NCBI GenBank assembly: GCA_964016885.1
Contig: OZ024746.1
Span: forward strand, 9,176,001 to 9,240,000
DNA from: Eledone cirrhosa
Lineage: Eukaryota
Direction: 5' to 3'
Length of the DNA stretch: 64,000 nt
How positions within the stretch are numbered: the first letter of the stretch is position 1; the number at the start of each line of letters is the position of its first letter. A program made the position numbers and the translations under genes. Positions 6,535 to 54,752 of the stretch are shown here, piece after piece. Below the pieces are notes generated by a model. The model saw only the letters and a list, made by a program, of their open reading frames with translations, ran no database searches and was not told the origin of the DNA.

Positions 6535-6735
6535 ATAACGAAGGAAGTGCGGTAAGGAACCAGATGGACCATAACGCACCAGAGTACTCAATACTTCAGG
6601 TAGTAGGGTGGGTAATAGGAAATGTTCAAGACCCGAACGACAGAGCTCAAGCCGTTTCAACGGCTGTTTCTGTCCAGAAATAGCCGTCGAAACGGCTTGT
6701 GCTCTGCCGTCGGGGTCTTGAACATTTTCCTATAT
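6535..6735 (-). mobile_element. Family A HHR-derived palindromic element
   Basis: Inverted arms around CTGTTTCTGTCCAGAAATAG; short arm ends CCTAT into (TA)n. Confidence 0.85.
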
Positions 6736-6799
6736 ATGTGTGTGTGTGTGTGTGTGTGTGTGTACATTTATATTATTTATTTTTGTACAGAAAAGAAGC

Positions 6800-7020
6800 C
6801 TGCTGTGTCCTTGAGCAAGATATTTTTGCTCCAGTTCACTCAGCTGTGGAAATGTGTTGCAACGTCACTGGTACCAAGGTCTATCGCCTTTTCTCTTGGA
6901 CGACATCAGAGGCGTGGAGAGGTATGCATGGGTGACGGGTGGTCTTCCACAAAACAAACAAACTTACCCGCAGTTGTGCCTTGGTGGGGAACATTTTCGA
7001 GGCAAATCCCATGGTCATTC
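6800..7020 (+). mobile_element. CORE-type SINE fragment
   Basis: TGTGTCCTTGAGCAAGAT...GCTCCAGTTCACTCAGCTG motif. Confidence 0.6.
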
Positions 7021-8024
7021 GTGAAAGAAGGGGTTCTTTACTTTAAAATATTATTAAATCATATGGTACCTCTTAACGAAATACAATGTGAGAAATTTAT
7101 AACTTCCATTCACTTAATATTATATGACATATATATGGATGATTTATAGGAGCCATACTTTTCGATTAATGTCTACGTTGAATTCTCCTGTGTACGTTTC
7201 CTTAATATAAATAACGCAGTGGTATGTAACACATGCCGGACAAGGCAATGTTTAAATTGGGTAGTTAGCAATAGTTCGGAATATTCCACCATTTATGTTA
7301 CTGTGTCTGTGTGTTCGAAATATATTCGATTTTCGTTCCATTCAATCCTGTTTCTCAATGCGTGTATATGTGTCTTTGGTTTTGCATGTGTGTTTGTATG
7401 TATGGCTCTATGTGTGTGTGTGTGTGTATATGTATGTGTATGCGTGAATCTATATGGGTGTTTGTGTTGATGCATGTGCTTATTATTCATTTCATGTATA
7501 ACAAAATTAACTTCTGTGTAATGTAAACCTTGAGCATGCTGTAACACAAAACAGGAATATCCGAGATGAAAACGATGATTTCGGTTGCTATGGCGTCAAA
7601 ATACCAATTTGACATCGAGATGTATTTATGGATCAGATAAAGACAAAACACTCCCCACAGAAGAAAAATATATAAATAAAAAAGAAACAAAGTTACAAAG
7701 TGAAAGAAAGAATAGAAGTATATGGAAAATAATCCTCAGGAAATCCCTTTCGTTTTATATTTTCTGATATAGCCATTCGATTACTATCAAACTCAATTAA
7801 TCGATAACGATAAAAACTCAATTTTAGAAGCATTTTATATAGAAGTCTATTTACTACATTCACGACTAACGTCGGACGAAGAAGGAGCCGAAATATGAAA
7901 AAGAACATTTAAAAAGAAAACAAAAACAAAGGACGTAAATTAAAAACATGGAAAGATTGTATGGTATGGTCCCGTAACTCATGATGGAGTTATGGGACCA
8001 TACCAGAGCATGGAGGGCCACTTT

Positions 8025-8059
8025 AGGGACATATTACGTTTCTTGGGCATCTTTAGCCT
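8025..8059 (-). ncRNA. Degenerate minimal hammerhead
   Basis: Minus strand: agg-CTAAAGA-tgcccaa-GAAA-cgtaatatg-TC-cct; G5 to A; strong hairpins on both sides. Confidence 0.4.
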
Positions 8060-8376
8060 GGCGGAGCCCGTCCCGCTCCACGCCTGAGTTCAACAGATTT
8101 CCTTCAGAAAAGTGTATGAGAAAAAAGAAGTGAGAAAGAGATGTGGAGGAAGAATCGACGCGAATACTACGTATATGCATACTTATAATACTCTCACTCA
8201 GTAGTATTGGCACCAATATAGACTCACAACACAGATATGCTAACTGTAAATATTCAAATGTGATAGAACTTTTTCTAATGTTTTAATTGAATTTAACAGA
8301 TAGATTCCACTGACTTCAATGATAACAGAAGTGCAGCCTTATTTCTACTGATATTATAATCAATTTCTTCGGATCA

Positions 8377-9015
8377 TATATATATATATATATATATATA
8401 TATATATATATATATATATATATATATGTATATATATATATCCATGTATGTATATCTATGTATAAATATATATATATGTATATATATATATATATATATA
8501 TATATATATATATATATATATATATATATATATATGTATATATATATGTATATATATATGTATGTATATATATATATATATGTATGTATATATATATATG
8601 TATATATATATATATATGTATATATATATATATATATATATATATATATATATATATGTATGTATGTATGTATATATGCATACATATATATATATATATA
8701 TACATATATATATATACATATATACATACATATATATATATATATATTTATATATACATATATATATATATATATATATATATATATATATATATATGTT
8801 TGTATATATATATGTATGTATATATATATATATATATATATATATATGTATGTATATATATATGTATATATATATATGTATGTATATATATATAGGTATA
8901 TATACATATATGTATATCTATGTATAAATATGTATATATATATATATATATATATATATATATATATATATATGTGTGTGTGTGTGTGTGTGTATGTATG
9001 TGTGTGTGTGTGTAT
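8377..9015. repeat. Long compound (TA)n/(TATG)/(TG)n microsatellite
   Basis: Direct inspection; many similar tracts occur throughout the window. Confidence 0.97.
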
Positions 9016-9334
9016 TAATAATATCGAATGATTTATAGCTGGCACCATATTGAATATGAAGTGTCATGAACGGAATTTATTGGACATTTTTCAGTTTAGA
9101 TTTATTTTTCTATTAACTTGTAGGATAATAGAAAGCCACGACAGTGGACAAATGTTGTATTTTTTGTTGTTTTTAAACTTTTAATATTAATCCTCTTTTT
9201 TTTTCTATTCTTGCAGTGAAGTAACAATTTTCTATGACCGTGTATATAAATGTGTCTTTGTCAAAATTTGAGCATTTGGGGGCGGGGATCTAATTGCTGC
9301 CTTGTGCAGTTAGACTGAGCTTTTATGGTAAGTA

Positions 9335-52057: not shown

Positions 52058-52093
52058 TCTTCTGATGAAGGACTAGCGTCTGAAACGTTAAGA
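52058..52093 (+). ncRNA. Minimal hammerhead (family D)
   Basis: tctt-CTGATGA-a-ggac-tagc-gtct-GAAA-cg-TT-aaga; palindromic AACGTT stem III. Confidence 0.85.
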
Positions 52094-52479
52094 CCCTCTT
52101 CCTGCTATACCAAGCGTTAACCTAATATATACCTTCCATATACTGTACCGATTGTGTTGTTATTTCTGTTTACCTTTTACATACATATATATATATATAT
52201 ATATATATATATATATATATATATATATATAGAGAGAGAGAGAGAGAGAGAGAGAGAGAGAGAGAGTATTTACGTATCGAGAGAGAGAAAAAAGGAGGGA
52301 TAGGTGATACATGTAATTATTTGCCAAATAGCGTATGCAGAAGGTGCTCAATGCTAATGCTGGCATTATTAAATATTAGTAGTGTTAATATTTAGTGGGC
52401 GAGAGAATTAGCAGAGCGTAAGCTCGTGGAAAAGTAAGAAATCGGAGGACAGACCGTTAATACATGTTTATTTAAAACA

Positions 52480-52519
52480 GCACCTACTTACGTTTCGCCC
52501 GGATGGGCTTCTCAAGGGC
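52480..52519 (-). ncRNA. Variant hammerhead-like motif in the PLE 3' region
   Basis: Minus strand: gccc-TTGAGAA-gccc-atcc-gggc-GAAA-cgtaag-TA-ggtgc, followed by AATAAA. Confidence 0.55.
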
Positions 52520-52894
52520 ATAAATAACTAAAAGTGTTCCTTACATGGTCCGGAAAGTGTTTTTGGAGGTAAGTTCACGTCAGAGTTCATTCTTCGCAAA
52601 CAAAAGCGTGTTTTGATTTTGCAGTAGGTCAAGGGGGTAGATCTGGCCGGTGTTAGGGCAGTCTTTCCCGGACAAATTTTTTATCCGTTACAAGATGTAG
52701 TTACAACCTTACCATTGTCCATACGCACAGGTTCAGGTAAGCAACGTTTGTTTTGAGACGTGTGTTTACTGCACCTGCCCGCCTGTGTCATTTGAAGCTG
52801 GGTCTGGGATGCATGGTTAGTTTCCGGATGGTTTTTTGCAGCGCCTGCCCGCTGGGGTGTTAAAGCTTGTTGCAGGGAGACCCAGTATACGGTT

Positions 52895-53485
52895 TCACTC
52901 CTCATCCTTCTCCCATCTGAAGAAGTATATTTTTAAGCGATGTGTATAGCGTATCGTCATTTCAGCTCTGCTGATGAGCTCGTGGGGTGCTGTTATGATG
53001 TGGTAGAGCTCCATGAGGCAAAGATCACACTTCCTCTGGAAGTTGTACGGTGCATCCCTGCCGACAATATCCCAGTGCCTGGAGAAGCTGATGTTTAAGT
53101 CTTTTAATGATGTGATGTAGTCCGCGAGCGAAGTAGAGTGTCTCAATTTCTTAGTTGTGAAAGAGTGGAGATGTGTTCGAAATCTAATTTTGAACGGCCC
53201 AGAGGTAGCCCCTATATAATGTTTAACGCTATTGTGGCTAGTTACAGTGCACCTATATATAACCCTATCAGTCAAGCAGTATCCCCTAAGGGGGCAGCGT
53301 CCCCTGTCGCGGCAGTTGCAATTTCTGTCGCGGTCCCTTCTAATTCCCACTGTAAGGCTATCATTATTGCTATCTATGTTGTTATCTACGCTCCCGCACC
53401 TGTCGTTAGCACCATTATAACCCACTGCGCGCGGGGTGGTACCATTATTATTCCGCACGTCATGTCCTGCATGTTTCCCTGTCAT
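52895..53485 (-). CDS. GIY-YIG endonuclease domain of a Penelope-like element (relic ORF)
   Basis: VIY...YIG, conserved R and H, CxCx5Cx5C motif upstream and CxxC..E downstream. Confidence 0.85.
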   Translation of the reverse strand: MTGKHAGHDVRNNNGTTPRAVGYNGANDRCGSVDNNIDSNNDSLTVGIRRDRDRNCNCRDRGRCPLRGYCLTDRVIYRCTVTSHNSVKHYIGATSGPFKIRFRTHLHSFTTKKLRHSTSLADYITSLKDLNISFSRHWDIVGRDAPYNFQRKCDLCLMELYHIITAPHELISRAEMTIRYTHRLKIYFFRWEKDEE

Positions 53486-54442
53486 GTTCCGGTTATGCTG
53501 GTTGTGTCTGTGGAGGCTTTTGCCAGCACTATTGGATGCTGCTAGGGAGTCGTTAAGGCCGATATAGTTATTGTCAGGTGTAGGTGCGTCTGTGCTAAGA
53601 TGCTGTGTCTTGGTGATCTTACTGTGATTAGTTGTTCCTATGATGTCTGCTAGGTTAGGAGTAGTAGAGAAGGATATTTTTATATTGTTCCTATTAACGA
53701 TTGTTCTATACCTATGGTTGGGTGGGAAGTTCTTCTCTAAGGCTTAGAAGAATATCCGGGGTATGTTGGAGGCCACACTCCAAGAGTAGGGGGATGGAAC
53801 CATGGGCCGTTACAGTGGAGATTACGTGTCCTTGTACGTTTGCTACGGGTGGTTCCATCAAGGTGACCGTTCTTATGCATGTTAATGCACTGTAGCCCGT
53901 TACGTGCCCCTTTCACTTTATGCTCGGGTGCACTCTTCTTCCTTATTCTATGTTTATGTACAGGAAGATGTTGGTTGGAAGGCGTTGGTAGTAGGCCGTC
54001 GCCTTTGTTGATTTCATAGTAGGGGAATAATTCGAGTAGGCTACAGTGGTCACTGTCACCGGGGTCGTGGTCTTTATTGTGTGGTAAGTTACCTATACTA
54101 TGGCCAGTGTAATTAACATTGTGGCTGTGTTCCTTAGTGCGATTATCTATACTATTATATCCGACTCCTACGAAGTCGCCGCGTGATCGGTTATAGGTAT
54201 GGCTTACTATAACGTTCGTCTTATGAAGGGGGTGGTTTCTGGAGCTAGCCTTAGGGATGTAGGTTAATTCCTCGGTTAAAGCCAGCGCTTATCAAGGCCC
54301 TATTGTAGTAATCTGCCCGTTGGTTGAAGATATCCTCATTGGCGGAGAGCCTCGAGATCCTAGGTGAGATGCTATAGACTAGTTGAGAGTCTGCTTAGGG
54401 TGGTTGGAGGCATAATTAATATAAGAAAGGCTCTCTCCAGGC

Positions 54443-54752
54443 TTATGGTATGGTTCCTTACCACAACTCCTTCGTTATATATATATATATATATATATAT
54501 ATATATATATATATATATATATATATATATATATATATATATATATATATATATATATATATATATATATATATATATATATATATATATATATATATAT
54601 ATTTAAAGATATATATAACGGAGTTGTGGTAAGGAATCAGATGGACCATAACGCACCAGAGTACTCAATACTTAGAGTAGTAGAGTGGGTAATAGGAAAA
54701 TGTATGACCCCAACGGCAGAGCTCAAGCCGTTTCGACGGCTATTTCTGGACA
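54443..54752. mobile_element. Family A fragments tail-to-tail around (TA)n
   Basis: 3' tip at 54443-54478 (+); copy at 54615-54752 (-) truncated within stem II. Confidence 0.8.

Follow-up and report, generated by a model that had tools for sequence, protein, structure and literature searches.

The stretch of 64,000 nucleotides from Eledone cirrhosa analyzed here (contig OZ024746.1, positions 9,176,001 to 9,240,000; called the window in the following) contains eight copies of a short repeat, Family A, of which six are head-to-head palindromes and two are solo long arms (at 3771 and 54616). Judged from its sequence features, Family A is the 3' end (pseudo long terminal repeat, pLTR) of a Penelope-like retroelement (PLE) of the Hydra clade inserted in (TA)n. 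The repeat is a real and abundant footprint of a known class of elements, while the mechanism suggested in an initial annotation of the window, a cDNA (complementary DNA) folding back on stem II of a hammerhead ribozyme, has to be replaced by a better-supported one. Probably, the palindromes arise from two target-primed cDNAs which start at two fixed sites, run off the template RNA's 5' end, likely a start within loop II of the ribozyme, and are then end-joined.

In each of the eight copies, the 3' strand of stem II, GAAA, a 5-bp stem III, GUC and GGGG follow in this order, and in none of them is CUGANGA present in front of the stem II strand. The initial annotation had read all eight in the same way, as the 3' half of a hammerhead with a GUC site. 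Positions within the arms are counted from +1, which denotes the A in the conserved TYAGT motif of loop II. Arms have two fixed 3' ends, +62 (CCTAT, short arms) and +140 (long arms), separated by a 78-nt tail, and both ends run into (TA)n. The six inverted copies that had been annotated were recovered as six palindromes, whose short arms all end at CCTAT and merge into (TA)n (6/6). The copy at 44097, which had been noted as rearranged, is indeed unusual in that its long arm starts about 35 nt more 5' and an internal deletion affects the short arm. The arms and the elements associated with them are as follows:

3771..3890, plus strand: solo long arm, start at +2, tail shortened at a (CT)n run
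3810: predicted hammerhead cleavage C of the solo arm 3771..3890
6536-6733: palindrome 1
6536..6672, minus strand: long arm of palindrome 1, start at +5, with the 78-nt tail
6672..6733, plus strand: short arm of palindrome 1, start at +2, CCTAT end
12877-13085: palindrome 2
12877..12937, minus strand: short arm of palindrome 2, full to +1
12938..12944, plus strand: junction insert of palindrome 2, 7 nt corresponding to +7..+13, snap-back type, between two arms that are both full to +1
12945..13085, plus strand: long arm of palindrome 2, full to +1
21127-21322: palindrome 3
21127..21263, minus strand: long arm of palindrome 3, start at +4
21263..21322, plus strand: short arm of palindrome 3, start at +2, extending more 5' than the long arm
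22525-22705: palindrome 4
22525..22579, minus strand: short arm of palindrome 4, start at +7, with 7 template positions that are missing from the long arm
22579..22705, plus strand: long arm of palindrome 4, start at +14
44096-44307: palindrome 5
44096..44132, minus strand: short arm of palindrome 5, internal deletion fusing loop II to the 3' strand of stem III
44132..44307, plus strand: long arm of palindrome 5, +1 at 44167, start in loop II about 35 nt 5' of that position, without core
44333-44534: palindrome 6
44333..44472, minus strand: long arm of palindrome 6, to +1
44476..44534, plus strand: short arm of palindrome 6, start at +5
54451..54503, plus strand: separate short tail-end fragment of Family A together with the TA run next to it; a (TA)n tract separates it from the 54616 copy, which it faces
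54616..54751, minus strand: solo long arm, start at +2

The short arm of palindrome 5 matches a master subfamily at C1:58382575. Next to the first solo arm, positions 3736-3769 represent the end of another TA-inserted repeat, which meets the Family A arm head-to-head and replaces the mirror arm. This junction suggests that two different RNAs were used in one insertion. Ends of the other repeat were also detected at window positions 1-84, 309-378 and 22341-22372.

Several of the 30 best matches extend far 5' of the limits of the short copies (stubs), and tracing these led to L092, a full-length, frameshifted copy composed of pLTR, open reading frame (ORF) and pLTR in a partial tandem with a unit of 3,128 bp. 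Its ORF fragments contain RWR (fragment P0004; RWR or RWK in the homologues), SDKT (P0002), xDDGL, a CxCX5C linker, a GIY-YIG-like YIG, CxxC and CxH (CxCX5C, CxxC and CxH in P0001). Aligned to homologues of approximately 700 amino acids (n = 52), the fragments revealed the order reverse transcriptase (RT), then C-terminal GIY-YIG. The initial annotation had proposed to look for a master copy with the ribozyme core, ideally at the 3' end of an RT/GIY-YIG ORF. Such an element exists and carries a core 5' of stem II, but the core reads UUGANAA and not CUGANGA. An RWK-like motif, DKT, CxCX5C, CxxC and CxH together with a (TA)n target are diagnostic for the Hydra clade (Craig et al. 2021, PMC8557442). 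Family A has all of them: the single-ORF layout of RT and C-terminal GIY-YIG (about 700 amino acids in the homologues), the RWK-type motif, the change from DKG to DKT, the three cysteine/histidine motifs, and flanks consisting of (TA)n. Partial tandems and an inverted 5'-truncated copy, there Penelope-13_HM, are further common properties, while the unit of 3.1 kb compares to "generally <3 kb" in the clade (PMC8557442). Pfam yielded no relevant match for the protein fragments of L092 itself and weak ones in 2 of 5 homologues (RVT_1, E = 0.0044; GIY-YIG, E = 0.014), and a sequence search of the PDB gave 0 matches; the Hydra clade has been described as divergent (PMC8557442). The octopus Hydra family in that paper has a different hammerhead, a canonical one, and for two Family A motifs there were 0 matches in the examined part of its supplement.

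A further locus, L348 (G000:C3:214146200-214148400), harbors five 273-bp tandem units preceded by an inverted long arm. The unit reaches from pLTR position -21 to the tail, followed by the first 115 nt of the body, and is devoid of the ribozyme core; it looks like the product of repeated copying from a small circular or re-used template. Classification of Family A as a non-LTR retrozyme, i.e. non-coding tandem units each with a complete hammerhead, was rejected because the stubs are core-less inverted pairs and the small array L348 is core-less as well.

Long copies contain CCCC, UUGANAA, G, a stem II of 9 bp that closes loop II (33 nt), GAAA, the 5-bp stem III, GUC and GGGG. This sequence corresponds to a complete type I hammerhead whose 3-8 pair is swapped from C-G to U-A (U3-A8); the core positions 3-9, G12-A13-A14, A15.1-U16.1 and C17, a Watson-Crick 3-8 pair and all three helices of this type are present. 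The U3-A8 core gave 4,217 exact matches in the genome with all four bases at position 7, the strict CUGANGA pattern only five. A looser CUGANGA pattern had 41 matches, but the 30 that were fetched turned out to be chance words at junctions or in flanks and a canonical core was discarded. In 49 copies selected without constraint on the core, U3 was present in 43, U4 in 49, G5 in 46, A6 in 47, A8 in 47 and A9 in 49, while position 7 was variable. An older sister family (L270-L299; 197 matches) has the same tail ends and TTAGT, and a loop II unrelated to that of the main family. U3 and A8 occurred together in 27 of 30 fetched sister loci, retrieved by a pattern restricting position 8 to A/G. Between the two families, three stem II pairs are changed on both sides, which represents few independent events, and 94% of the cells are paired. 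The constrained hammerhead fold differed from the free fold by 0.8-2.4 kcal/mol in four main-family copies and was 8.8 kcal/mol worse in one sister copy. Four copies (L254, L268, L143 and L228) possess C3 together with A8 and hence a mismatched 3-8 pair; they may form a small subfamily whose ribozyme is weakened. Rfam did not reveal a hammerhead among the 150 of 274 window matches that were listed, and those listed were microsatellite-driven.

The U3-A8 core is a published natural variant with reported activity in vitro (Perreault et al. 2011, PMC3088659). It was also reported for the pLTRs of Schistosoma Cercyon PLEs with approximately 1,300 matches, where paired hammerheads lie 100-700 bp from each other on the two opposite strands (Cervera and de la Pena 2014, PMC4209133). 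The compensated core is what Family A has in common with these hammerheads, yet its stem III is full and its stem II is long, and the motif is not a minimal one. By contrast, the Hydra hammerheads listed in PMC8557442 all contain CUGANGA and short stems II and III. The genome holds no firm sign of ribozyme cleavage. A breakpoint peak at the predicted cleavage site was not established, as 3 of the first 30 ORF-leading copies started at +41..+43 and none in the next 60 loci. The three copies (L252, L256 and L258) begin within 1-2 nt of the predicted cut, and their partner sequence is antisense body or unrelated. Among 85 long arms, 3 begin at +37..+43. Since all arms span the predicted cleavage site, their template RNAs were uncut at this position. 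A 4G/5G difference between arms at this site appeared in 8 of 16 pairs retrieved with a 5G query and in 0 of 44 pairs of a position-ordered sample; it was thus dismissed as a selection effect.

In the 3.0-Gb genome, 53,708 exact matches to a 22-mer of the arms were counted. A spacing of 30 nt or less separates the arm anchors in 13,928 palindromes, and one of 31-60 nt in 1,763; reversed control patterns gave 0 matches each, and the repeat counts far exceed chance. The position of the 5' boundary was determined with 168 arms, taken from the exact arm matches that come first along contig 1 (n = 100), from other arms in the fetched surroundings and from 204 kb in and around the window. For the start histogram, the 146 arms with a close core-bearing master were used and the 22 without one were excluded. 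Starts were located at -6..+8 in 114 arms (44 at +1 or +2), at +9..+18 in 12, at -7..-59 in 3 and beyond -60 in 17. The breakpoints are hence clustered and not random, as the initial annotation had anticipated. In copies leading into the ORF (95 junctions), 12 starts were found at -6..+8, four independent events at -45..-7, four starts at +9..+39, 30 from +40 onwards and 41 beyond -46. Ends at +1 are not only joined to a mirror arm but also to (TA)n or to ORF-internal sequence (L091, L241, L246). In the sister family, TTAGT is present at the same distance and the handful of palindromes seen there break at it too. Due to the sharp boundary, the retention of TTAGT, the non-mirror joins and the accumulation in ORF-leading copies, +1 behaves as the template RNA's 5' end. 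We infer that it is a putative capped RNA polymerase II transcription start with an initiator-like TYAGT, resembling the Drosophila initiator TCAGTT (PMC10290830). The two PLE transcription starts that have been studied are both situated in the pLTR (PMC8557442).

Several points weigh against this interpretation. As at least one arm had to match +11..+32 exactly, the counts of starts downstream of +11 are too low, so that it is the 5' edge of the distribution that is informative. The initiator consensus is that of Drosophila, and a literature search found none for this type of host. A TATA-like word 30 nt upstream of +1 exists in the main family and is absent from the sister family. The cDNA base following a complete arm was A in about 59%, C in about 21%, G in about 14% and T in about 5% (totals of 756 and 1,357, split by hand from the first 100 rows of each). 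This is a weak, at best suggestive signal of an extra base derived from a cap, and the C could arise from snap-back inserts. Moreover, many arms overrun +1 by 1-4 nt along a T run, +1 of the main family belongs to the 3' strand of an inner stem II helix that is weak and where a structural stop is possible, and the 41 of 95 ORF-leading copies past -46 imply that read-through RNAs serve as templates, too.

It is conceivable, though clearly less probable than templating by the element itself, that most stubs were copied from short non-autonomous RNAs which originated from earlier stubs and which, like those of short interspersed nuclear elements (SINEs), had an internal promoter; the start at +1 and priming at both ends would be shared. 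The excess of arm matches over core-bearing matches (53,708 vs 4,217), the mere 197 exact matches of tail-to-ORF junctions and the 22 of 168 arms for which the sampled loci contained no close core-bearing master are in favor of this idea. On the other hand, ORF-leading copies begin at +1 as well and long masters exist for the main subfamilies. Rather doubtful is the assumption that +1 is a strong RT stop or an RNA processing cut in the folded hammerhead, which would leave the two-end priming unchanged. The position of +1 within the inner helix of the main family, the weak cap signal and the RNAs reaching further 5' would agree with it. However, this helix is weak, +1 was unpaired in the single sister copy that was folded (L278), and TYAGT and its spacing are conserved. 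In addition, RTs usually stop at the 3' foot of a stable helix.

How the two arms originated can be deduced from their combination. A long-ended arm is joined to a short-ended arm in 61 of 64 head-to-head pairs. Among the short-range pairs (n = 49), the short arm extends further 5' in 23, the long arm in 18, and both are equal in 8; approximately 10 of the 23 differ by at least 4 nt. Among long-range pairs, the short arm is further 5' in 5 of 10, by up to 2.6 kb (L095, 2.8 kb vs 0.25 kb), and 15 intact short arms stand opposite a long arm that stopped early. A single folded-back cDNA would start at the long site and could not produce a short arm that extends further 5' than the long one. The case for two cDNAs is diminished by the fact that many of the 23 pairs differ by 1-3 nt only and that one pair is probably false; later deletions at the axis could also mimic some of the asymmetries. 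Arms within one copy belong to the same subfamily in 34 of 37 pairs (expected fraction, 0.20) and are 0.947 identical, compared to 0.86 between copies. Arms therefore group by copy and not by side, in agreement with the initial annotation, which indicates that both arms stem from one source element and that the palindrome is not a fixed miniature inverted-repeat transposable element (MITE). The three discordant pairs could be due to later mutation or to two templates. CCTAT is the 3' end of kb-long copies, too, and by analogy corresponds to a known PLE tail, or second RT start site: PAc, the protein of the PLE Poseidon of Anolis, starts reverse transcription at two internal RNA sites, by which the tail is defined, and cuts and extends both target strands in vitro (Frangieh et al. 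2024, PMC11167929). Thus, the resolution by TA microhomology at CCTAT that had been proposed initially was given up. A structured priming signal in the tail was unsupported, with folding z-scores of +0.4 to +0.8.

In the original proposal, one cDNA folds on stem II and serves as its own primer for the second strand, with resolution at CCTAT through TA microhomology. The 9-bp stem II helix is real, the arms of a copy share their subfamily, snap-back inserts occur, and self-priming has been proposed for Penelope palindromes (PMC3846280). Nevertheless, we regard this pathway as very unlikely. The "long stem II" of the stubs, in which the axis had been placed, is itself a product of the inversion, as the master has a different 5' strand. 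A fold-back on stem II would keep the whole loop II between the arms, but such a product was found in 0 of the 50 listed loci with a spacer of 31-60 nt (read by eye), and one of the 50 fits the weak inner helix. Most of these loci consist of two arms full to +1 or +2, and what separates the arms are A/T runs or inserts templated locally. The pairs in which the short arm reaches beyond the long one, the termination of kb-long copies at CCTAT and a boundary that tracks a sequence motif across families with different loops II are not compatible with the proposal either. The related idea that the fold disarms each copy holds insofar as the stubs lack the core, but the inversion axis does not coincide with the symmetry axis of stem II. 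Microhomology of 1-5 nt was present at 23 of 69 junctions, 10 are blunt and 36 contain an insert or upstream bases; by hand count, about 60 different junctions exist in the 69 loci. The snap-back inserts at some of them demonstrate that brief fold-back occurs, as a joining scar. A still smaller chance has to be assigned to long inverted insertions which were shortened later by central deletion. Long inverted pairs exist and some arms suffered repeat-mediated deletions (window 44096; L007), yet this would not explain why arms stop at a single nucleotide, and partners other than mirror arms occur at +1 ends as well. A fixed MITE with terminal inverted repeats moving as DNA into (TA)n, suggested by a short, palindromic and very abundant repeat within TA runs, is negligible in view of arms that group by copy, the many different junctions and a sequence that is the 3' end of an RT/endonuclease element.

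According to the preferred explanation by two target-primed cDNAs, the message would begin at +1, so that at its 5' end the hammerhead would be represented by its 3' half alone, with the two priming sites downstream of it. A dimer of the enzyme would nick both strands of the (TA)n target and prime one cDNA per site. Because these sites are 62 and 140 nt away from the 5' end of the message, run-off would yield stubs of 60-140 bases. Both cDNAs would end at +1, and host end-joining would seal the middle, trimming a few bases or adding snap-back inserts like the one at 12938-12944. Priming in the 3' pLTR would give rise to the rarer long copies bearing the core. The core would be absent from stubs since the 5' end of the RNA likely never had it, and not through deletion by fold-back.

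Other repeats in the window show partly similar arrangements. A second (TA)n-flanked family (16679-16971 and 50725-50950) forms an uneven palindrome and contains a CUGAAGA word; a solo copy and one arm both start at an initiator-like CAGTT, and the family may follow the same RNA-start rule and possibly carries a rearranged hammerhead of the Naiad type. Long palindromes of unrelated sequence are located at 20376-20753, 41274-41634, 51150-51212 and 1511-3015, of which the one at 41274-41634 is bordered by TA runs and contains a CUGAUGA word close to its axis. A family of about 190 bp with tandem copies occurs at 1594-1783, 2718-2917, 9333-9516, 23401-23903, 24532-24726, 30651-31042, 38741-38920, 57828-58022 and other sites; we take it to resemble a tRNA-derived SINE with a Nin domain.

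Much of the architecture of Family A is already published, namely the Hydra clade, the inverted pLTR, the tail, hammerhead pairs on opposite strands and the U3-A8 core, which limits the surprise. Insertions of endonuclease-containing (EN+) PLEs have an inverted pLTR and an optional tail (PMC3846280, PMC8557442). Head-to-head arms, a tail at one end only and palindromic junctions are common to both, while the tail comprises 78 nt in Family A and 30-40 nt in EN+ PLEs (PMC3846280, PMC8557442). What distinguishes Family A from these accounts is one fixed 5' boundary inside the ribozyme. Moreover, the published explanation is self-priming on an antisense template (PMC3846280), whereas the Family A copies need two cDNAs. 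In this respect they match PAc, with two internal RT start sites setting the tail, both strands cut and extended, an AT-rich target and uncut RNA as the main substrate, as also indicated by the arms of Family A. PAc, however, belongs to another clade and its RT start sites lie inside the ORF (PMC11167929). LINE-1 twin priming is similar in that both target ends are primed on the element RNA and the cDNAs are joined by microhomology with small indels (PMC4859970, 10.1101/2024.12.14.628481). Unlike in LINE-1, both arms of Family A copy the same stretch from two fixed sites. Twin-priming arms of LINE-1 originate from different parts of the RNA, the internal site being variable. A literature search of incomplete coverage retrieved no account of a PLE start site in loop II of a hammerhead or of a strict combination of long and short arms.

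The formation of inverted ends in PLEs and the role of their hammerheads have been posed as questions (PMC8557442, PMC11167929). Family A offers natural products by the tens of thousands, in which two 3' ends and one 5' end are fixed; they argue for priming on both target strands and against fold-back of a single strand. The pattern also predicts a transcription start that splits the ribozyme. A bolder interpretation, which we put forward tentatively and consider possible rather than probable, is that the element has its promoter inside its own ribozyme. Its message would start with a core-less half hammerhead unable to cut, while the complete hammerhead near the 3' end would cleave upstream of both 3' priming sites, leaving only the 5' sites and resulting in harmless palindromes of 60 plus 140 bases. 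If true, the ribozyme would act as an inherent brake on full-length transposition, and tens of thousands of stubs would be the record of it; no such function is known to have been assigned to a PLE ribozyme so far.

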